From: Clostridiales bacterium | GTDB lineage: Bacteria > Bacillota > Clostridia > Oscillospirales > CAG-382 | Direction: 5' to 3' | DNA length: 64,000 bases | Assembly (NCBI GenBank): GCA_003452915.1 | Contig: DMMZ01000027.1 | Location: forward strand, 10,273-74,272 | Part shown: piece by piece, positions 945 to 62,810 of the stretch | Position numbering within the stretch: position 1 is the first letter of the stretch | Layout of the letters: each line of letters begins with the position of its first letter | The notes under the pieces: model-generated | Databases searched by the model: none | Seen by the model: the letters and a program-made list of their open reading frames with translations, nothing else | Told to the model about the DNA's origin: nothing | Translations under genes and position numbers: made by a program

Positions 945-952
945 AATTATAA

Positions 953-1088
953 TCGTTCCTTTCGTCGAAGTGCGAAGTTTTGTGCCGGTTCCCCGCACAT
1001 TGCGGATTTTTTGTAGAAGCTAAATTTATACCATTCTGTCCGGTGTAAAAGGCATAAAACTCTTTGTTTGAAAGTCTTCTTTCAGACT
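953..1088 (-). repeat. Structured leader element, copy E (degenerate), flhB-flhA junction; candidate cis-regulatory RNA
   Basis: The sense strand reads GTCTGAAAGaagaCTTTCAAAC..GAGTTTTATGCC..(insert with CCGCAatgtGCGG hairpin)..GGCACAAAACTTCG..CGAAAGGAACG-N11-ATG. It has the same block order as copies A-D but is diverged. Confidence 0.5.
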
Positions 1089-2156
1089 TTACCCCTTTTT
1101 CTTGGATTTTTTCAGCTTATAAATAAATGCAAGTATATCAGCGACCGGTTTGTAAAATTCTTCAGGTATTTGTCTGTCAACCTCAACTGCTGCATAAAGC
1201 CCTCTTGCAAGAGGTACATTCTCGGTTACCTGAACACCGTTTTTTTCTGCAATCTCTATGATTTTAAGAGCAAGATAATCCTTGCCTTTCGCTATAACTA
1301 TCGGAGCTTTATCTTTAGGAGGATTATATTTAAGTGCAATGGCATAATGAGTCGGGTTTTTTATAACAACATCAGCTTGCGGTACTTTTTTCATCATACG
1401 CATTGTTGCCATTTTACGCTGAACATCCTTTATACGGCTTTTTACCTGTGGATCACCTTCGGTTTGCTTGTATTCATCTTTGATTTCCTGCTTTGTCATC
1501 TTAAGTTCTTTTTCATGCTCCCACCATTGATAGAAATAATCAGCGACAGCAAAAATCGCCATGTACATTGCAATTTTTATTGTTATGTCATAAATCGTAT
1601 TACCTATCCAGGACATTGCATCGCTTAATTGCAACGCAGGTAACTGGACAACCTCTGACAATCTGAAATTTATTTGCGAATATAAAACCGATGCTATGAT
1701 TACAACTTTTATAAGTGACTTGAGTAACTCAACCAACGACCTAAGAGTAAATATTTTTTGCATACCGGAAATAGGATTAAGACGCGAAAACTTTGGTTTC
1801 AATTTTTTTACGTTGAAAAGAAACTGTGTCTGTATACCACCTAAGATAAAGGATATTAATCCAATAATTATTCCGATTGGTGCGATAATAATTAATATAT
1901 TTATTACGAACTCAACAATTAAATTCATTGTCACTGTTACTGTTAAGTCGGATAATAATGAAGCTTTACTTATTCCGTCTTTTAAAATACTCTTTATAAA
2001 TAATAGAATAGGTGAAATTATTAATTTAAAAATGAATGTGATTGCGATCAAACCGAGTGCATGAATTACATCCTTACTCTGAAATATATTACCTTTTTTT
2101 CGTTCGTCTTCGCGTTTTTTTGGCGTGGCTTTCTCGGTCTTTCCGCTGTTTGCCAT
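1089..2156 (-). CDS. flhB: Flagellar export switch protein FlhB
   Basis: The ORF track 1089..2252 contains MANSGKTEKATPKKREDERKKGNIFQSKDV...NPTHYAIALKY (FlhB autocleavage NPTH motif). I place the start at the internal ATG 2154-2156 (MANSGK, typical FlhB N-terminus). The 32 upstream codons read through the repeat element. Confidence 0.92.
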   Translation of the reverse strand: MANSGKTEKATPKKREDERKKGNIFQSKDVIHALGLIAITFIFKLIISPILLFIKSILKDGISKASLLSDLTVTVTMNLIVEFVINILIIIAPIGIIIGLISFILGGIQTQFLFNVKKLKPKFSRLNPISGMQKIFTLRSLVELLKSLIKVVIIASVLYSQINFRLSEVVQLPALQLSDAMSWIGNTIYDITIKIAMYMAIFAVADYFYQWWEHEKELKMTKQEIKDEYKQTEGDPQVKSRIKDVQRKMATMRMMKKVPQADVVIKNPTHYAIALKYNPPKDKAPIVIAKGKDYLALKIIEIAEKNGVQVTENVPLARGLYAAVEVDRQIPEEFYKPVADILAFIYKLKKSKKKG

Positions 2157-2163
2157 AATTTGA

Positions 2164-2285
2164 CCATTCCTTACCTCGGCGGTTACGCCGGTAGCGGGAA
2201 TTGTGCCGATTCGGCAGAAGCCGAATTGACTTTCCATTAAAGTCAAAGGCACAAAACCGTAGTTTGAAAGATCTATCTTTCAAAC
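2164..2285 (-). repeat. Structured leader element, copy A, fliR-flhB junction; candidate cis-regulatory RNA ending in the flhB SD
   Basis: Sense strand: GTTTGAAAGatagatCTTTCAAAC tACGGTTTTGTGCC TTTGACTTTaatggAAAGTCAA TTCGGCttctGCCGAA tcGGCACAATTCC cgctaCCGGCGtaacCGCCGAGGTAAGGAATGG. It is near-identical to copy B, and the differences fall in loops or are compensatory. Confidence 0.75.
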
Positions 2286-2294
2286 TTCACATCC

Positions 2295-3074
2295 TTATTC
2301 TGATGAGAGCATAATACTAATCCCTTCTTCTAGTCGCTCAAACATATATGTCATTGACGAATCCAACACTCTGGAAGCTATTGGTAGTGTCAGCAAAACA
2401 ACTAATAATCCAACTGCAAGTTTAACCTGTAATCCTATCGCAAAAATATTTATATGAGGTACTATTCTCATAAGTACTCCAAGTCCTGCTTCTGTTAAAA
2501 ATTCAATTGCTATTACAGGAATAGCCAGTTTTAACGCCAAAATAAGAACGTCACCGAAAAGAAGAACTATATAGCTGCCTACACCAAAATTAAATATATC
2601 GTTACCTAAAGGAAACAGTTCACAGGATCTTGTAACTATTCTTATAAGGGTTAAATGACCATTTGACGCAAAAAACATTAATGTAAAAACAGTGTTATAG
2701 ACAGAACCCGTCAATGCCATTGATACATTGCTCTGTGGATCGTAAACTTTTCCCATTCCAAGACCAAGCTGCATATCAATCGATTCGCCTGCTATTAATG
2801 CAATAGAAACAAACATCTGCATCATCATGCCGATTCCGAATCCTATAAGCATTTCTTTTAAGATAATAAATATGAATTGAAGCATTGAATCAATTTGGGG
2901 ATTGGCCTCGCTCAAAGCAGGGGTAATACCGGCAGCAATTACAATAGCAAGTCCTACTTTTAATATTCCGGGTATGTTTTTTTTACCCATAAAAGGGTTA
3001 AATATAAAAGTGCTCGAGAACCTTGTGATAACTAACAGGAAAAGAATATAATTATTACTTAATTCATTAAACAT
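2295..3074 (-). CDS. fliR: Flagellar export apparatus protein FliR
   Basis: Polytopic membrane protein in the fliP-fliQ-fliR-flhB order. The start is set at ATG 3072-3074 (MFNELSNNY), preceded by GGAGG. The track start at 3086 is a GTG that overlaps that SD. Confidence 0.9.
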   Translation of the reverse strand: MFNELSNNYILFLLVITRFSSTFIFNPFMGKKNIPGILKVGLAIVIAAGITPALSEANPQIDSMLQFIFIILKEMLIGFGIGMMMQMFVSIALIAGESIDMQLGLGMGKVYDPQSNVSMALTGSVYNTVFTLMFFASNGHLTLIRIVTRSCELFPLGNDIFNFGVGSYIVLLFGDVLILALKLAIPVIAIEFLTEAGLGVLMRIVPHINIFAIGLQVKLAVGLLVVLLTLPIASRVLDSSMTYMFERLEEGISIMLSSE

Positions 3075-6712: not shown

Positions 6713-6958
6713 TTAATCTACTTGTGGTTTTTCCACAACCTCTGGTTTGTTCCTGTGTTTACGAATAAAAGAACAATTGGCATAAAACATCATCTTAAAT
6801 TCATGTATCTTTGCTATAACTTCCGCTGCTGTCTCTTGAGCATAATGCTTTTTTCCAGTAGTCATAGTAATAAGTGTATCTGGCATCTCTTCAATAATTT
6901 CTATAAGCTCACAGTTTAAATAAAACTTTTCGTTATTAAGTTTTGTTAATTGAATCAT
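6713..6958 (-). CDS. flbD: FlbD/SwrD-family small flagellar protein
   Basis: MIQLTKLNNEKFYLNCELIEIIEEMPDTLITMTTGKKHYAQETAAEVIAKIHEFK matches the FlbD pattern. The start is set at ATG 6956-6958. The 41 upstream codons of the track ORF are read-through of repeat copy B. Confidence 0.85.
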   Translation of the reverse strand: MIQLTKLNNEKFYLNCELIEIIEEMPDTLITMTTGKKHYAQETAAEVIAKIHEFKMMFYANCSFIRKHRNKPEVVEKPQVD

Positions 6959-6966
6959 ATATATGA

Positions 6967-7090
6967 CCATTCCTTTCCTCGGCGGTTTACCGCCGAAAGC
7001 GGGAATTGTGCCGATTCGGCGATAGCCGAATTGACTTTCCAATAAAGTCAAAGGCACAAAACCGTAGTTTGAAAGATTCATCTTTCAAAC
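6967..7090 (-). repeat. Structured leader element, copy B, flgE-flbD junction; candidate cis-regulatory RNA ending in the flbD SD
   Basis: Sense strand: GTTTGAAAGatgaatCTTTCAAAC tACGGTTTTGTGCC TTTGACTTTattggAAAGTCAA TTCGGCtatcGCCGAA tcGGCACAATTCC cgCTTTCGGCGGtaaaCCGCCGAGGAAAGGAATGG. Confidence 0.75.
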
Positions 7091-7154
7091 TTTACCATTT
7101 CTTTCCCCGGAATTTATACCGGAAGCAGTCTAATAATTTTTATATTGTTTTTAT

Positions 7155-7973
7155 TTATCTTTTAAGATTAACAAGCTCTTCGAGAACCTGATCAGAGGTT
7201 GTTATAACTCTTGAGTTTGCCTGAAAGCCTCTCTGTGCAACTATCATATCAGTGAATTCTTTTGTCAGGTCGACGTTAGACATTTCAAGACCACCGGAAA
7301 CCAATGATCCCGCTATACTGCTGCCGGGAGGTGTGAAAACAGGTGTGCCAGAACTGTTTGTCTGCGTATAACTTACATTTCCTTCTTGAGTTAACGCGTC
7401 CGGATTTGAGAAGGTTGCAAGCATAACTTGCCCAAGATTATCTATCTGTAATGTCATCGAATTTGTACCTGTTATTCTGCCGTCACCTGAAATGGATATT
7501 CCTGTATATAGATCAAAACCAGGAATTGTTATTCTATCAAGGCCCCATCCCATTGATGAATACCCGATTACAAAATTACCGTTGGAATCAATAAGAGTTC
7601 CATCCGAATTAAATTTAAAACTTCCTACTCTGGTATATAACTGTTGTCCTGTGGTATCCTGAACAGTAAAATAACCTTCACCCGATATATACATATCCAA
7701 TGTACTTGAGGTTTGCTGGTAACCGCTTCTTGTAGTAATTACGTCGATTGATGCAACTGATGCACCATAACCAATCTGCATTGCTGCTGAGCCGCCCGAT
7801 GTTGCTGTGGGTGCGCTTTCTGCTGAAAGTGTCTGGTAATATAAATCCTTGAATAGAACTCTGCTGGACTTGAATCCTACGGTATTTACGTTTGCTATAT
7901 TATTACCGATTACGTCAAGCATGGTCTGGTGACCTCTTAAACCTGTTACTGCCGAATACATTGATTTTATCAT
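7155..7973 (-). CDS. flgE: Flagellar hook protein FlgE (short, Bacillus-like form)
   Basis: N-terminus MIKSMYSAVTGLRGHQTMLDVIGNNIANVNTVGFK and C-terminus GGLEMSNVDLTKEFTDMIVAQRGFQANSRVITTSDQVLEELVNL, the flagellar rod/hook signatures. The start is at ATG 7971-7973, 9 nt after GGAGG. Confidence 0.85.
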   Translation of the reverse strand: MIKSMYSAVTGLRGHQTMLDVIGNNIANVNTVGFKSSRVLFKDLYYQTLSAESAPTATSGGSAAMQIGYGASVASIDVITTRSGYQQTSSTLDMYISGEGYFTVQDTTGQQLYTRVGSFKFNSDGTLIDSNGNFVIGYSSMGWGLDRITIPGFDLYTGISISGDGRITGTNSMTLQIDNLGQVMLATFSNPDALTQEGNVSYTQTNSSGTPVFTPPGSSIAGSLVSGGLEMSNVDLTKEFTDMIVAQRGFQANSRVITTSDQVLEELVNLKR

Positions 7974-16764: not shown

Positions 16765-17066
16765 AATATAATCATTCCTCTCTATTCCGGATCATTATGT
16801 TTATACAGATTTGAAGAGATTTATAAACAAAAACTGCATTTTTATACGTAAATTGTAAATAAAAAATCTCGCATTAAAAATGAACGGTAATTAACTATTG
16901 TGACACAATAAACACACTAGCAACACGTTTAGATATAATACGACATTATTCGACAATGTTAATCTTAATTACTATATTAAAAAACAATACTTATAAAAAT
17001 ATTTTAAATTAAATAGATGTATTTATTTTTATTAAAATGTAAGATTTATTCAATTATTTTATTATT

Positions 17067-21905: not shown

Positions 21906-22207
21906 ATTGTAGAAATAGAATTTGAACCCGGGAAACAGAGTCAGTACCATTTATTTAGTTGACAAATACTATCCATCCTGCGCCTATAATCTAAAATCAA
22001 GCATCTTACCTGTATTTATTAACCTGTTACCGATATAAAACTACCAGATAATGAAAAGATATTTTAATATAAAAAATATTATGATACAATGCTTTCAAGA
22101 TAAATTTTTAGATGGGAGATAAAGTTTGAGTAAATTTTCAAGAAGACTAAATTAAAACAGCGTAATTCTCACTTCGAGATAAATATCACAGAAAAGAAAG
22201 GTCATAA

Positions 22208-22293
22208 ATTTGAAAGATAAATCTTTCAAACACGGTTTTGTGCCGTTACGGCACAATTCCTGCTTTCGGCAAGAATGCCGAGGAAAGGTATGG
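22208..22293 (+). repeat. Structured leader element, copy C (minimal form), upstream of the ABC ATPase; candidate cis-regulatory RNA
   Basis: ATTTGAAAGataaatCTTTCAAAC ACGGTTTTGTGCCG-tta-CGGCACAATTCC tgCTTTCGGCAagaaTGCCGAGGAAAGGtATGG. The variable hairpins of copies A, B and D are replaced here by a 3-nt loop. Confidence 0.75.
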
Positions 22294-23213
22294 TTAATTT
22301 GAAGAACATAATTGAAGTCAAGGATTTTGTAAAGAAATACAATAATTTTACAGCAGTTGATAATGTTTCATTTGAGGTAGAGGAAGGAAGTATATTTGCG
22401 TTTTTAGGTCCAAACGGTGCAGGAAAAAGTACAACAATAAATACATTATGCACTATTTTCGATAAAACTTCAGGTTCCTTGTTTATTGATGGAAAAGATG
22501 TCACGCACGAAAAAGATGCTGTCAGAAATATTATTGGGGTTGTATTTCAAGAACCAACTTTGGATAATAAAATGACCGTTAATGAAAATCTGATTATGCA
22601 CTGTCATTTCTATGGAATATCTAAAAATGAAGCTACTGAACGTATTCAATTTGCTTTAAATTTAGTGGATTTGTTGGATTGGAAAAAAGCTATGGTAAGC
22701 AGTCTGTCCGGCGGTATGAAACGCCGTGTTGAAATAGCAAGATCATTGTTACATTATCCAAAAGTATTGTTTCTGGATGAGCCGACCACCGGTCTTGACC
22801 CACAAACTAGAGCACATATTTGGGATTATATTGTTAAATTGCAAAAGGAAAAAAACATTACTATATTTTTAACTACACATTATATGGACGAGGCTGAGAT
22901 TTGTGGCAAGGTAGCGATAATGGATACCGGTAAAATCGTTGCGCTAGACACTCCTTATCGTTTGAAACAACAATATACCAAGGATAAAGCTTATATAACC
23001 ACGAAGGATGAGCAAGGGTTGATATCATTGTTGGATAAAGGTAATTATAGTTACAAGCAGAAACCTGGTTATTTTTCAATTGAAGTTGACGATATTCCAA
23101 AGCTTATGGAGTTATTAAGCGAACAGAAGTCGGTAATTACTGATTTGGAAATTAAAAAAGGCACTCTCAATGATGTGTTCTTAGAAATCACAGGAAAAGA
23201 TATACGAAAATAA
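22290..23213 (+). CDS. ABC transporter ATP-binding protein (ABC-2/DrrA-like)
   Basis: Walker A GPNGAGKST, signature LSGGMKRRVEIA, Walker B VLFLDEPTTGLD. The start is set at ATG 22290 (MVNLKNIIEVKDF). The earlier ATG at 22275 lies inside the repeat. Confidence 0.93.
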   Translation: MVNLKNIIEVKDFVKKYNNFTAVDNVSFEVEEGSIFAFLGPNGAGKSTTINTLCTIFDKTSGSLFIDGKDVTHEKDAVRNIIGVVFQEPTLDNKMTVNENLIMHCHFYGISKNEATERIQFALNLVDLLDWKKAMVSSLSGGMKRRVEIARSLLHYPKVLFLDEPTTGLDPQTRAHIWDYIVKLQKEKNITIFLTTHYMDEAEICGKVAIMDTGKIVALDTPYRLKQQYTKDKAYITTKDEQGLISLLDKGNYSYKQKPGYFSIEVDDIPKLMELLSEQKSVITDLEIKKGTLNDVFLEITGKDIRK

Positions 23214-23250
23214 ATCTGAAAGACTTTCGGCGTATCGCCAAGGAAAGGGA
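23214..23250 (+). repeat. Leader element fragment, copy F (3' hairpin-SD module only), ATPase-permease junction
   Basis: TCTGAAAGA CTTTCGGCGtatCGCCAAGGAAAGGG. It shows the same CTTTC..GAAAG hairpin running into the SD as copies B and C. Confidence 0.45.
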
Positions 23251-23261
23251 TAATTTTACAT

Positions 23262-36154: not shown

Positions 36155-36270
36155 ATAGAAGTCTTCAGGGCAGGGTTAAATTCCCTACCGGTGGTATAGC
36201 CCACGAACCGAGAGGTATGATTTGGTGAAATTCCAAAGCCGACAGTATAGTCTGGATGAAAGAAGATAAA
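36155..36270 (+). promoter_or_regulatory. FMN riboswitch (RFN element) aptamer
   Basis: GTCTTCAGGGCAGGGTTAAATTCCCTACCGGTGGTATAGCCCACGA...GGTGAAATTCCAAAGCCGACAGTATAGTCTGGATGAAAGAAGA matches the conserved RFN core blocks. It lies upstream of ribD. Confidence 0.93.
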
Positions 36271-36304
36271 TATATCAGCATTATTGCTTATATTGTAATC
36301 GTTG

Positions 36305-36412: not shown

Positions 36413-37519
36413 ATGTCTAATATAGAGTATATGAAAATAGCTATTGAAAATGCCAAAAAAGGGTGCGGTTATGTAAATCCGAACCCTATGGTTGGAGCTA
36501 TTATTGTAAAAAACAAAAAAATAATCGGCTCTGGTTATCATGAAAAATATGGCGGTTTACATGCTGAAAGAAATGCTTTAGAGTCTTGTACATGCTCCCC
36601 ACAAGGTGCAACGATGTATGTAACCTTAGAGCCTTGCTGTCATTATGGTAAAACTCCTCCTTGTACAGAGGCAATTATTAAAAACAGTATTAAAAGAGTT
36701 GTTATCGGCTCAAAAGATCCTAATCCTCTTGTAGCAGGAAAAGGGATAGAAGCTCTTATTCTAAACGGTATAGAAGTAATCACGGGTGTATGTGAAGAAG
36801 AATGCAATAAATTAAACGAAGTTTTTTTTTACTATATCAAGACGAAAACACCTTTTGTCGTTATGAAGTACGCTATGACCATTGATGGAAAAATTTCAAC
36901 ATATACAGGATGGTCAAGATGGATTACAGGTGAAAAAGCGAGAGAACATGTCCATCAATCGCGACATAGATATACTGCAATTATGATAGGAGTAAATACA
37001 GTAATATCCGATGATCCACTACTCACCTGCCGATTACAAAACGGTAAAAATCCTGTTAGAATTATCTGTGATACAAATTTACGAACACCACTTAATTCTA
37101 AAATTATAAAAACTGCAAACGATATTTCTACCTATATTGCCACTGCCTGCACTGATGTTGAAAAGCAAAAACAATTCATTAATTTTGGTTGCAAGCTTCT
37201 TATAATACCTAAAAAAGAAGAACATATTGATCTAAATGTCTTAATGTTGCGATTAGGCGAGCAAAATATAGATAGTGTTTTATTAGAGGGCGGATCAACT
37301 ATAAATTACAGTGCATTGCAAGCTGGTATCGTTAAAAAAGTACAATGTTATATTGCGCCAAAAATATTCGGAGGTAACACTGCAAAAACTCCCGTAGGAG
37401 GACTTGGTATTGAATTACCTGACAATGCATTTTTGCTAAAGGATAAACAAATAATATTTTTGGATGATGATATTTTAATTGAAGGCGAGGTAATACAAAA
37501 TGTTCACAGGTATAGTTGA
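36413..37519 (+). CDS. ribD: Bifunctional riboflavin biosynthesis deaminase/reductase RibD
   Basis: Deaminase zinc motifs HAE...PCxxC (GGLHAERNAL, TLEPCCHYGKTPPC) and a C-terminal reductase domain. Confidence 0.93.
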   Translation: MSNIEYMKIAIENAKKGCGYVNPNPMVGAIIVKNKKIIGSGYHEKYGGLHAERNALESCTCSPQGATMYVTLEPCCHYGKTPPCTEAIIKNSIKRVVIGSKDPNPLVAGKGIEALILNGIEVITGVCEEECNKLNEVFFYYIKTKTPFVVMKYAMTIDGKISTYTGWSRWITGEKAREHVHQSRHRYTAIMIGVNTVISDDPLLTCRLQNGKNPVRIICDTNLRTPLNSKIIKTANDISTYIATACTDVEKQKQFINFGCKLLIIPKKEEHIDLNVLMLRLGEQNIDSVLLEGGSTINYSALQAGIVKKVQCYIAPKIFGGNTAKTPVGGLGIELPDNAFLLKDKQIIFLDDDILIEGEVIQNVHRYS

Positions 37520-52364: not shown

Positions 52365-52441
52365 TGGCAGGGATAGATGGACTCGAACCATCGGAATGCA
52401 GGAGTCAAAGTCCTGTGCCTTACCGACTTGGCTATATCCCT
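52365..52441 (-). tRNA. tRNA-Gln (anticodon UUG)
   Basis: The minus strand folds manually as a cloverleaf: AGGGATA TA GCCAAGTCGGTAAGGCA CAGGA CTTTGAC TCCTG CATTC CGATG GTTCGAGT CCATC TATCCCT G CCA. The anticodon loop is CU-UUG-AC, and the sequence is close to Bacillus tRNA-Gln. Confidence 0.9.
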
Positions 52442-57714: not shown

Positions 57715-57885
57715 GCTTTATGTTTCCCCTCTAATTAAAGGTATTAATATATATTATATATCTATTTTACCATTTTTGCAATTATTTTTACAAAAAGAGG
57801 TGTATTTATTTGTTAATTTATGATATTATTATTCAGTTAAAATTAAAAACGGAATTACTTTCTCACGAAAGGAACGGTAATAGCA

Positions 57886-61265: not shown

Positions 61266-61380
61266 GCGTTAGCGTGAAAAATATAAGAAATTGAGGTACA
61301 TTGGCTCGTATTAAATGTACACAACGGTGTACCATGCGATTTTTTCATTACTGTTTATGTTCGGCAGGACGTGGAGGTTA

Positions 61381-61530
61381 GTTTGAAATATTCCATTTTT
61401 CAAACACGGTTTTGTGCCTTTACTGCAAGAGGTGCAGTAATTCGGCTGTTGCCGGAACGGCACAATTCTAATGTATGAAAGTGTAACTTTCATACAATGT
61501 GGTTGGCGTAAACGCCACGGAAAGGAATGG
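61381..61530 (+). repeat. Structured leader element, copy D (largest form), upstream of the 427-aa membrane protein
   Basis: GTTTGAAAtattccatTTTTCAAAC ACGGTTTTGTGCC TTTACTGCaagagGTGCAGTAA TTCGGCtgttGCCGGAA cGGCACAATTC taatg TATGAAAGTgtaACTTTCATA caatgtggt TGGCGtaaaCGCCAcGGAAAGGAATGG. Confidence 0.75.
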
Positions 61531-62810
61531 ATCATATGAAAGAAAAAACAATTATCAGTCGAAGTCTTACTTGGGTATCTGTGGGAATGTTCTTTTTAAT
61601 CAACCCACTGTTAAATGTGGTTGATGTGCTTCCCGATTTTTTTGGATATTTAATTATTTATATCGGAGCTTCTAAGTTAGCAATGCTTAATGGGCGATTG
61701 GAATCCGCACTCAAAAAATTACAATATCTGATAGTTATCAGCGCTCTTAAACTAGCTATAACTTACTCTGTAATATCATCTGCGGTGGATTATGATAGAT
61801 TATTAGCAGCTTTTTGCTTTGCGATAGTTGAATTATTACTCTTGGTAATTACCGCTTTTGAATTTTTTGAAGGTTATGAGTATTTAATAATCCATAACGA
61901 AGGCAAGAAAACAGCTTCATTAATACCTAATGTCCGATTTTTAACAACTTTATTTTTTTCATTTAAAATCGTATTATCTGTTGTCCCCGAGCTTTATGCT
62001 TTTATAGAAACACGACAGCAAATTGATGTTTCAAACTTCCAATTTCTAAACAGTTTACAAAGCACAAGAGGTTTAGTAACCGCATTTTGTTTATTTATTG
62101 TATTAATTTTAGGAATTATATGGTATGTAAATATTATAAGAATGCTTAGTACTACCAAAAATGATGAAGAATTAAACAAGAAGTTGACAGATCGTTATAA
62201 TAACGAATTTATTGCATATCCCGAAAAACAAAATCTAAAATCACTTAAATTCGGACTATACATCGCATTATTAGGCTGCATTTTCTTTTTTGACATTACT
62301 GTTGACGGAGTTCGGATACTTCCGACAGCTATGGCAATAGTATTATTTTCGGTTTCTGCATTTATATTAAAAAGATTCGCTTCATTTACAAGAACCATCA
62401 AATCAGCACCTTATGTTATTATTATTCAAATTATTACCGAGATATTTAGATACCTTTATGCCGATAATGAAGCTGTTTTTCTCTCCGAACTTGATCTGAC
62501 AATTGTAGTATACAGCTCGTTGGTAGTCGTGATTAGCGCGTGTGCTGTAATGCTATTTATGAGCAACTTTCTTGACGATCTTCGTGACATGTATGCAGGT
62601 ATAACAACAAACAAAATTCCGACTTTTTATATGAAAAGCTTTTTGTTTTTAGTGTTTATTGTTATCGGGTCGCTCCAGATTGTTCTTCCAACCATCCGTG
62701 ATGAAACCTCTGCAATCGGTTTTTTAACTGTAGCATTATGGGTTTTCCTGTGCGGAAAGCGGTTTTTATTTATCATTGAAGATTACGGCAAATCAATAAG
62801 ACTATTATAA
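61527..62810 (+). CDS. Hypothetical polytopic membrane protein
   Basis: 427 aa with about 10 TM helices. The start is either the element-internal ATG at 61527 or ATG 61536. No recognisable family. Confidence 0.65.
   Translation: MDHMKEKTIISRSLTWVSVGMFFLINPLLNVVDVLPDFFGYLIIYIGASKLAMLNGRLESALKKLQYLIVISALKLAITYSVISSAVDYDRLLAAFCFAIVELLLLVITAFEFFEGYEYLIIHNEGKKTASLIPNVRFLTTLFFSFKIVLSVVPELYAFIETRQQIDVSNFQFLNSLQSTRGLVTAFCLFIVLILGIIWYVNIIRMLSTTKNDEELNKKLTDRYNNEFIAYPEKQNLKSLKFGLYIALLGCIFFFDITVDGVRILPTAMAIVLFSVSAFILKRFASFTRTIKSAPYVIIIQIITEIFRYLYADNEAVFLSELDLTIVVYSSLVVVISACAVMLFMSNFLDDLRDMYAGITTNKIPTFYMKSFLFLVFIVIGSLQIVLPTIRDETSAIGFLTVALWVFLCGKRFLFIIEDYGKSIRLL

Follow-up and report, generated by a model that had tools for sequence, protein, structure and literature searches.

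The 64-kb window analysed here (64,000 nt of contig DMMZ01000027.1, assembly GCA_003452915.1, from a Clostridiales bacterium) raises a simple question: what is a hairpin-rich sequence doing between the stop codon of fliR and the start codon of flhB, and why does it recur before other genes? A preliminary description of this DNA had recognised six copies of the sequence, each leading into the Shine-Dalgarno sequence (SD) of the gene behind it, and had proposed a translational riboswitch, a thermosensor or a protein-titrated leader. We found that the family is genuine: its members are structured, sense-oriented elements that end in the SD of the downstream gene, and their stems covary. Our results point away from a regulatory switch and towards mobility. 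On balance, the element is probably a non-autonomous, orientation-specific dispersed repeat, mobile now or in the recent past, in a clade of uncultured Clostridia that includes relatives of the Oscillospiraceae.

Copies of the element and their predicted fold

The sites in the window were scored with a covariance model built from 18 copies. All six sites noticed before are present at the same coordinates and on the same strands, and the earlier reading of the 122 nt separating the fliR stop from the flhB start proved exact. The window contains four intact copies (A-D); copy E belongs to a divergent subfamily, and copy F is likely a deletion derivative. In the list below, P1, P2, P2a, P2b and P3 are the predicted helices, RBS stands for ribosome-binding site, and SD2 is the RBS borne by the element itself.

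2159..2288, minus strand: copy A, whole element, with the fliR stop (2295-2297) on one side and the flhB ATG (2154-2156) on the other; model match 2159-2285(-), 144.5 bits
2262..2285, minus strand: P1 of copy A, the 5'-terminal hairpin GTTTGAAAG-ATAGAT-CTTTCAAAC
2197..2258, minus strand: P2 of copy A, GGTTTTGTGCC (2248-2258) paired with GGCACAATTCC (2197-2207), with a UU/UU internal loop
2226-2247 and 2210-2225, minus strand: P2a and P2b of copy A, hairpins inside P2
2177..2190, minus strand: P3 of copy A, the hairpin CGGCG-TAAC-CGCCG
2157..2176, minus strand: SD2 of copy A, AGGTAAGGAATGG, and the spacer TCAAATT; the start codon comes next (2154-2156)
2286..2297, minus strand: native (ancestral) flhB SD TAAGGATGTGAA, overlapping the fliR stop and now upstream of copy A
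6962..7093, minus strand: copy B, before flbD (ATG 6956-6958); model match 6962-7090, 148.3 bits
22205..22298, plus strand: copy C, short form, before an ABC ATPase (ATG 22290 or TTG 22299; Pfam ABC_tran)
61378..61535, plus strand: copy D, long form, before a 424-aa protein (ATG 61536)
948..1090, minus strand: copy E, between the flhB stop and the flhA start (ATG 942-944)
23201..23258, plus strand: copy F, before an ABC-2 permease (ATG 23262); model 16.6 bits, E 0.38, not significant alone
7094..7167, minus strand: hairpin and RBS-like tract GGGGAAAGAAATGGTAAA, abutting copy B upstream; model 25 bits over 7091-7167
22134..22204, plus strand: RBS-like tract ..AATTCTCACT..GAAAAGAAAGGTCATAA, upstream of copy C; model 19 bits over 22134-22206, E 0.11
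57845..57885, plus strand: secA RBS GGAATTACTTTCTCACGAAAGGAACGGTAATA-GCA-ATG, resembling a hairpin-less 3' module

The motif GGTTTTGTGCC occurs exactly four times in the window (34.5% G+C), once in each of copies A-D, and the P1 palindrome GTTTGAAAG-N6-CTTTCAAAC has three matches there against 0.06 expected by chance. Copies A and B, which are 90.7% identical across 129 nt, have predicted folding energies of -54.8 kcal/mol (z = -4.5) and -60 kcal/mol (z = -7.2), respectively; in the latter, SD2 is paired with AUUCC and CUUUC. In copy C (model match 22208-22298(+), 86 bits), P2 closes a 5-nt loop without P2a or P2b, and copy D carries an extra hairpin between the 3' strand of P2 and P3 (61381-61510(+), or 61381-61536 in another search; 92 bits). 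Copy F retains a P1 fragment, a P3 hairpin (GGCG-TAT-CGCC) and the SD, and is likely an internal-deletion derivative, to judge from these remains. Copy E (948-1087(-), 28.7 bits, E about 1e-3) begins with GTCTGAAAG.. and forms P2 from GAGTTTTATGCC and GGCACAAAAC. It had been described as a degenerate form; the site stands, but it belongs to a divergent subfamily found also at L033 1728-1859 and L001 1337-1452 (loci outside the window are cited by L numbers).

The tracts immediately upstream of copies B and C are ambiguous. The former could be the RBS native to flbD, or else a remnant of older date; in relatives, the flbD junction consists of a native hairpin followed by GAAAGGACTTATATT-ATG. 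The latter includes a weak pattern match at 22191-22206 and is possibly, judging by its letters, the 3' part of an older copy. Nested insertions at these two places are indistinguishable from native hairpin-plus-RBS sequence, and we downgraded them to possible.

Beyond the window, loci were searched with a 21-nt exact pattern spanning the 3' arm of P1 and the 5' strand of P2. It retrieved nine loci from five assemblies in a set of species-representative genomes and 42 loci from metagenomes. Four of the five carrier assemblies are metagenome-assembled genomes (MAGs), namely Clostridiales bacterium GWF2_38_85, an Oscillospiraceae MAG, Firmicutes HGW-21 and a contig binned as 'Margulisbacteria GWF2_35_9'; the fifth is the cultured Massiliimalia massiliensis. 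The covariance model gave 57 matches, of which 55, from 46 sources, were distinct once window duplicates were removed. The rest of the genome of the window contributed to this set, whose copies stem from at least five Clostridia assemblies, mostly MAGs, and several metagenomes. Alignment of the outside loci with the window is limited to the element, at 80-97% identity; in the relatives L052-L057 the syntenic flagellar coding DNA is only 65-78% identical. The 'Candidatus Margulisbacteria GWF2_35_9' contig (MFRH01000061.1) holds two copies, L005 and L009. In G+C and coverage label it comes close to the probable MAG of the window, and it may therefore be mis-binned rather than a cross-phylum occurrence. 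Part of MGOX01000002.1 (assembly GCA_001795415.1) matches the first 12,156 bases of the window without a difference. A further intact copy (128 bits) lies just beyond the window in the genome of the window, between fliA and flgF (L055 14081-14205(+)); a second partial 5' end, AAAGTTTGAAAAGAAC, is found 20 nt upstream of it, within the left flank. On the same stretch, also outside the window, FliW and CsrA genes adjoin the flagellin genes (L055 19628-20349).

An RNAalifold consensus from the alignment of the 18 standard copies contains four helices. P2 pairs GGUUUUGUGCC with GGCACAAUUCC around a UU/UU loop and encloses the hairpins P2a and P2b, and P3 is the terminal hairpin. In the alignment of all 55 copies, standard pairs make up 95.1% of cells, compared with 35-50% after pairing partners are slid by 1-3 columns and 80% in shuffles, and both sides have changed in 16 of the 27 pairs; here, cells count sequences rather than events, and the alignment was fitted to the model. 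Covariation is unevenly spread. P3 has changed on both sides in four of its six pairs and exists in at least five stem versions; the compensatory variants quoted in the preliminary description are present and hold generally across the family. P2a and P2b also covary, the P2a stem having essentially two or three versions. The sequence of P2 is almost invariant and never changes on both sides; in the E-type subfamily U-A pairs take the place of its UU/UU mismatch, in support of a continuous P2 helix. P1, which lies outside the structure of the covariance model, is a hairpin of 9-11 bp with compensated variants elsewhere (GTCTG/CAGAC, TTCG/CGAA). GGA motifs are found in SD2 and at the edge of the type-1 P2a loop, and are missing from the type-2 loop (AGAGG). 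P1 followed by ACGGUUUUGU (window 2261-2286(-) and 7066-7091(-)) fits a loose intrinsic-terminator pattern, with 11 pairs, three of them G-C, and five U in 8 nt; partial attenuation inside operons would be conceivable, and efficient termination is doubtful, given an AT-rich stem and an offset U-run.

The element is also modular. P2a and P2b are missing from the short forms (copy C, L027 and L049), and the long forms (copy D, L013, L025, L038 and L046) have additional hairpins within P2 or in the stretch from P2 to P3, with inserts of 30-60 nt at two places. The 3' module exists in two versions, one with P3 and one with CGCTCACTnnn instead. Element length varies from about 90 to 180 nt. The ends read (W)AAGTTTGAAAG on the 5' side and GGAATGGTCATA on the 3' side, and a direct reading of both found no complementarity and hence no terminal inverted repeats. 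Among GAAAAT-type copies, the three bases left of GTTTG are TAA in 12 of 20; among those of the GAAAGAT type, they are AAA in 16 of 25. Since they depend on the subfamily, they belong to the element, and the 5' boundary drawn in the preliminary description should be corrected, probably by about 3 nt in the upstream direction. The three bases before the ATG are independent of subfamily. Beyond the subfamily-specific WAA, the left flank has a purine tract and no fixed tetranucleotide.

Placement before start codons and empty junctions in relatives

The placement of the element is its most distinctive property. Sense orientation, claimed earlier for the six window copies, holds for all 55 distinct copies. 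The start codon of a long open reading frame (ORF) lies exactly 3 nt past the last model position (...TCATA) in 38 of them, at 0-4 nt in 45 and at 7-11 nt in four more, and the conserved 3' module reads ...GAAAGGAATGGTCATA-NNN-ATG. The remaining six include L003, which precedes the short rpmJ; copy D, where the ATG overlaps the end of the match as an edge effect of the alignment; L051, cut by the end of its contig; L041 12822-12950, with a start about 50 nt downstream; and L050, without an ORF. About 12 diverged matches outside the exact pattern are likewise sense-oriented and have the same start-codon placement. At L015 241-341(-), on a contig of 57% G+C, a copy ends 4 nt before a tRNA gene, with a TATAAT-like box just upstream of the element. 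Copies in the window track gene orientation on both strands, which speaks against a replication-strand bias; GC skew in the window follows the gene strand, leaving the direction of replication unreadable.

The genes behind the element are functionally unrelated and have no common theme. In the window they encode FlhB, FlbD (confirmed by Pfam), FlhA, an ABC ATPase and an ABC-2 permease, and a Pfam search assigned no family to the 424-aa protein behind copy D. Elsewhere, the Pfam families are Iso_dh (isocitrate dehydrogenase), PseudoU_synth_2, DivIVA, GATase (glutamine amidotransferase), RNase III, ExoVII_L, DHDPS, Tyr_Deacylase (D-Tyr-tRNA deacylase, Dtd), an SBF transporter and UxaC (glucuronate isomerase). 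Of 53 copies, 22 have a same-strand ORF ending no more than 30 nt upstream, 36 have one within about 130 nt and 17 have none; most copies, not all, are thus probably intercistronic. An internal promoter was also considered and set aside, as no sigma-70-type match was found on the sense strand of copies A, B or D.

The flanks of the element reveal what preceded it. An SD-like 4-mer lies within 14 nt of the element in 39 of 54 left flanks, against 14% at random positions. Comparison with the same junctions in relatives shows this upstream tract to be the original RBS of the gene. In L053 and L054, the fliR-flhB junction is 24 nt long and empty. It reads TAAGGGTGTGAATATAATTG in L054, which keeps TAAGGGTGTGAA, identical to the left flank in the window; the window itself has TAAGGATGTGAA, then the element, then ATT-ATG. 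At flhB-flhA, L052 has only stop-AAA-ATG where the window holds copy E; this junction is also empty in L054, and in L053 (on the same contig as L057) it holds a different, short copy. The fliA-flgF junction, filled in the genome of the window, holds no copy in L053 or L054. When the model was run with filters off across the flagellar region syntenic over 20 kb, the genome of the window had three intact copies and copy E, L057 had one and L056 none. In L052, the closest relative (80% FlhB identity), the fliR-flhB spacer is 51 nt long and contains AATTCC...GGAGAGGTATGATCCGTATTTATG, which looks like an eroded 3' part of the element. The element is therefore polymorphic for presence and absence at orthologous sites, as is a MITE (a transposable element of the miniature inverted-repeat kind). 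The preliminary description had taken copies in random orientation as the mark of a MITE-like repeat; polymorphic insertions were indeed found, but the orientation is anything but random.

Copies also decay in a characteristic way. In the mini-copy at L033 2232-2269, P1 is joined to the SD across an ACGG microhomology, and the one at L041 9280-9361 has lost most of P2-P3; copy F looks similar. Mini-copies of this kind arise by internal deletion with retention of the SD module. Matches to the 3'-module pattern before further genes, such as secA, suggest additional domesticated remnants. In the window, two RBSs resemble a hairpin-less 3' module, that of secA (57845-57885(+), GAAAGGAACGGTAATA-GCA-ATG) and that of another gene (16767-16790(-), GAGAGGAATGATTATA-TT-ATG), and both may be remnants of this sort. 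Orthologous copies before the same ferredoxin-like gene (L002 1492-1605 and L012 1808-1922) lie in sequences with five differences in 1,960 nt, four of which cluster within 22 nt of the 3' linker of the element; this cluster suggests a conversion patch from another copy.

We found no target-site duplication. In a gapped comparison of each copy's own flanks with those of other copies, scores were 12.4 versus 11.6 (p = 0.011, largely from L010), and ungapped anchored comparisons at k = 6-10 gave p = 0.06-0.94. A long duplication of the RBS was considered, as the left flank resembles the 3' end of the element, and was rejected since the likeness is not copy-specific; it arises because the native RBSs of the clade resemble that of the element, as in the GAAAGGACTTATATT-ATG before flbD. 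The only clear copy-specific flank match is at L010 4520-4646(-), where the left flank and the copy's own 3' end share an identical atypical 12-mer, GGAAGGTTGATA, which could reflect a local conversion or duplication event.

Mobile repeat or host-selected leader

In filled junctions, the element stands between the start codon and the native SD, which is left about 125 nt upstream; the element's own SD, now nearest the start, is the working RBS. We propose that the element is transcribed within the mRNA, where it would fold into P1, the P2 junction with P2a and P2b, and P3, and that it is mobilised in trans. Its RBS cargo would make insertion into the SD-start gap tolerable. Erosion by internal deletion down to the RBS would follow because, after insertion, the host would need only the 3' SD module. 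Likely secondary effects would be uncoupling from the upstream cistron, partial sequestration of the SD and possibly a stabilising hairpin at the 5' end. Because the hairpins are conserved in sequence and there are neither terminal inverted repeats nor target duplications, three routes of spread can be envisaged: a recombinase acting in trans that would recognise the folded strand; an RNA-guided or RNA-mediated process involving the anti-SD-like segments of the element; or copy-paste from one RBS region to another by short-homology recombination, in which purine tracts would serve on the left side and WWT-ATG-A-rich sequence on the right. The near absence of copies from neutral intergenic DNA, with L050 as one possible case, makes it unlikely that selection alone accounts for the placement. 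A more specific version, which we put forward only tentatively, is an RBS-homing mobile element, in which the machinery or an RNA guide would read the SD-spacer-AUG signature, insert at about -3 and deliver a replacement RBS. Such a guide would carry anti-SD-like segments such as CUUUC, CCUUU and AUUCC.

Several observations weigh against a mobile repeat. No transposase, integrase or autonomous copy was found, nor a Y1 transposase in searches that stopped short of whole genomes. We looked for an autonomous copy as an ORF between the 5' and 3' modules and discarded it, every model match being both full-length and short. The viral contigs scanned with the 21-nt pattern gave no locus and BLAST of copy B against phage and plasmid collections gave no match, and carriage by phage or plasmid was rejected on these results. 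To our knowledge, insertion at -3 of start codons fits no known mechanism of DNA transposition. With no two near-identical strains differing in a copy to compare, no fresh insertion was caught; in the genomes that offer the closest empty sites, FlhB identity is only 67-80%. Moreover, most copies were retrieved with the exact 21-nt pattern, which biases the set towards intact copies. The precise spacing to the start codon could partly reflect selection, and the conservation of loops as well as stems within subfamilies across genomes could indicate a function at the level of the host rather than recency.

The main alternative is a global cis-acting leader selected by the host as the target of an RNA-binding protein, a thermosensor or a module for processing or stabilisation. 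P1 would then be the 5'-terminal hairpin of the downstream mRNA after cleavage, and the element would have spread by providing a useful setting of translation or stability, which is compatible with a mobile origin. The near-invariant P2 with its UU/UU loop, the covarying stems, the folding z-scores (-4.5 and -7.2) and the probably intercistronic position of 36 of 53 copies all favour a function in RNA, as does the prediction that SD2 is paired at a probability of at least 0.5 in 34 of 52 copies. Counted on the sense strand, 49 G-U pairs stand against 31 A-C mismatches, which hints only weakly that selection acts on the RNA strand. We nevertheless regard this alternative as doubtful: presence at orthologous junctions is lineage-specific, no theme unites the downstream genes, erosion or large optional inserts are seen in many copies, the excess of G-U pairs is weak, and the pairing of SD with anti-SD has no compensating variation by eye. 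The last point also bears on the two mutually exclusive pairings proposed in the preliminary description, which were not supported. ATTCC:GGAAT is predicted in some copies, such as B, and not in A; the SD variants GGTAT, GGCAT, GGGAT and GGATT still face AATTCC by eye; and only two base pairs are at stake between the alternative partners of AUUCC, the SD (GGAAU) and the base of P2.

Could the element instead be translated? A bridging upstream open reading frame (uORF), in the manner of MIRU repeats, would have the native SD drive initiation at the UUG in GTTTGAAAG, with read-through and re-initiation at the gene, so that coupling is preserved. An SD-like tract does stand 4-9 nt before this UUG in most copies, and the commonest frame is open for about 30 codons and often ends at the TAA of the P3 loop or close to the start codon. 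The frame, however, is not conserved. Copies split 27:9:6 among the three frames, with stops 3-566 codons away, and the UUG is lost in the GTCTG/CAGAC and TTCG/CGAA variants. As these compensatory changes keep the pairing of P1, it is the hairpin and not the codon that is conserved. A bridging uORF is thus improbable, and a conserved leader peptide starting from the same UUG was rejected on the same grounds. An N-terminal extension from the ATG in GGAATGG was likewise discarded: it is in frame with the 3-nt spacer (MVIxM...), but the triplet is ATA or another one in about 10 copies, and the TAA in the loop of the GTGGCG-type P3 closes the frame of the gene.

Equally unlikely is a site that acts as DNA and has no role as RNA, whether a single-strand recombination site of the attC or REP/RAYT kind or a palindromic operator. 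P1 is a perfect 9-bp palindrome, the hairpins contain conserved mismatches, terminal inverted repeats and target duplications are absent, and the balance of G-U pairs and A-C mismatches favours the RNA strand only weakly; all of this would suit such a site. The strict sense orientation and fixed distance to the start codon are hard to explain without a link to translation, copies follow genes on both strands of the window, which argues against a replication-strand bias, and the genes of the flagellar operon are not integron cassettes.

Finally, a riboswitch for a metabolite or second messenger (e.g. c-di-GMP) that controls translation, the leading idea of the preliminary description, has as sole support a conserved fold with a junction abutting the SD, and is very improbable, and the thermosensor and titrated-leader variants in the form first proposed are not supported either: downstream genes belong to no common pathway, three junctions filled here are empty in relatives, the native SD is kept upstream, copies decay by internal deletion to the SD module, and the supposed aptamer core looks dispensable, P2a and P2b being absent from copy C (a 5-nt loop in their place), L027 and L049 and large inserts being tolerated although the P2 strands are nearly invariant. 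A search of Rfam 15 confirmed the earlier impression that the element belongs to no known class, flagellum-associated motifs such as Termite-flg included, as well as FMN, c-di-GMP-I/II, T-box, ykkC and RNA thermometers. At the gathering threshold, the whole window yielded only an FMN riboswitch and one tRNA, and copies A and D gave chance-level matches (9-19 bits) at E<=10. The FMN riboswitch (36157-36271(+), 110.6 bits) is full length and lies about 140 nt 5' of a run of plus-strand ORFs starting at 36413; the tRNA gene is at 52368-52441(-) (65 bits). A literature search by sequence strings returned only unrelated primer matches, and a keyword search for RBS-associated repeats in Clostridia nothing specific. 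The element is thus absent from Rfam, and no description of it was found in the searchable literature.

Relation to known repeats and significance

As we read the comparison, the element is best filed beside the Neisseria REP2 repeats and the similar Borrelia plasmid IR, which are rare examples of dispersed repeats bearing an RBS. These are 120-150 bp long, have no terminal inverted repeats and form internal stem-loops towards their 5' side; they carry an RBS and an ATG and stand immediately upstream of diverse genes, and their mode of proliferation is unexplained (Delihas 2011, PMC3184786). REP2 has been described as containing a promoter and marking a set of co-regulated genes (PMC3184786). 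Like REP2, the element lacks terminal inverted repeats, has internal stem-loops and abuts the start codons of diverse genes with a 3' RBS. Unlike REP2, it has no sense-strand promoter match (copies A, B and D), about two thirds of its copies closely follow a same-strand ORF, the genes behind it are unrelated rather than a regulon, and its multi-hairpin fold is larger and covaries. Since the host phyla differ as well, homology in sequence is unlikely, and we set the element beside REP2 by description only.

Other families share fewer traits. MIRU are short intergenic repeats in operons whose ends overlap the adjacent genes and which contain ORFs overlapping their neighbours; they lie in gene orientation and occur in tandem arrays. 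The element resembles them in its placement inside operons, but it has no conserved reading frame, and its copies are single apart from the possible nested remnants. IS200/IS605-derived palindrome-associated elements and REP/RAYT systems have the same hairpin at both ends, a left target of 4-5 nt and strand-specific insertion. The element shares with them the lack of terminal inverted repeats and target duplication, hairpins with conserved mismatches and strand specificity; it differs in the absence of a fixed target on the left and in its two hairpins, for P1, which is AT-rich and terminal, has no sequence relation to P3, which is GC-rich and stands about 20 nt from the 3' end. Integron attC sites lie 3' of promoterless cassettes in an array beside intI and are built of R''/L''-L'/R' boxes. 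By contrast, the copies studied here lie inside a conserved flagellar operon whose gene order is as in relatives, and the 5' end of the element is GTTTGAA, without the GTTRRRY core. ERIC/IRU, Correia and REP/BIME repeats have terminal inverted repeats or are simple palindromes, and they occur in either orientation at varied intergenic positions. Compared with these and with the IS200/IS605-derived elements, the element alone has a fixed relation to start codons. ERIC/IRU, Correia and REP/BIME are also non-autonomous, co-transcribed and hairpin-forming, and can alter mRNA stability or expression (described in part in PMC3184786).

The consequences for genome annotation are immediate. The called ORFs of flhB (1089-2252(-), 382 aa against 355 aa from the conserved ATG) and flbD (6713-7081(-), 122 against 81 aa) extend into the element, and their start codons are therefore misannotated; the element misleads gene callers and causes systematic errors of this kind. 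Within the window, at least six of about 60 genes, and possibly eight to ten, start behind sequence derived from the element. As a portable and strongly structured module of leader plus RBS, it may serve the study of translation initiation in Clostridia. Moreover, its many filled and empty junctions offer material for studying how RBS-bearing repeats such as Neisseria REP2 proliferate. RBS-homing, if true, would represent a new targeting strategy for bacterial mobile DNA and a mechanism for the long-unexplained repeats of the REP2 type. If the element truly targets RBSs, it would be a selfish element that survives by replacing the very signal it disrupts, and a natural source of new RBSs.

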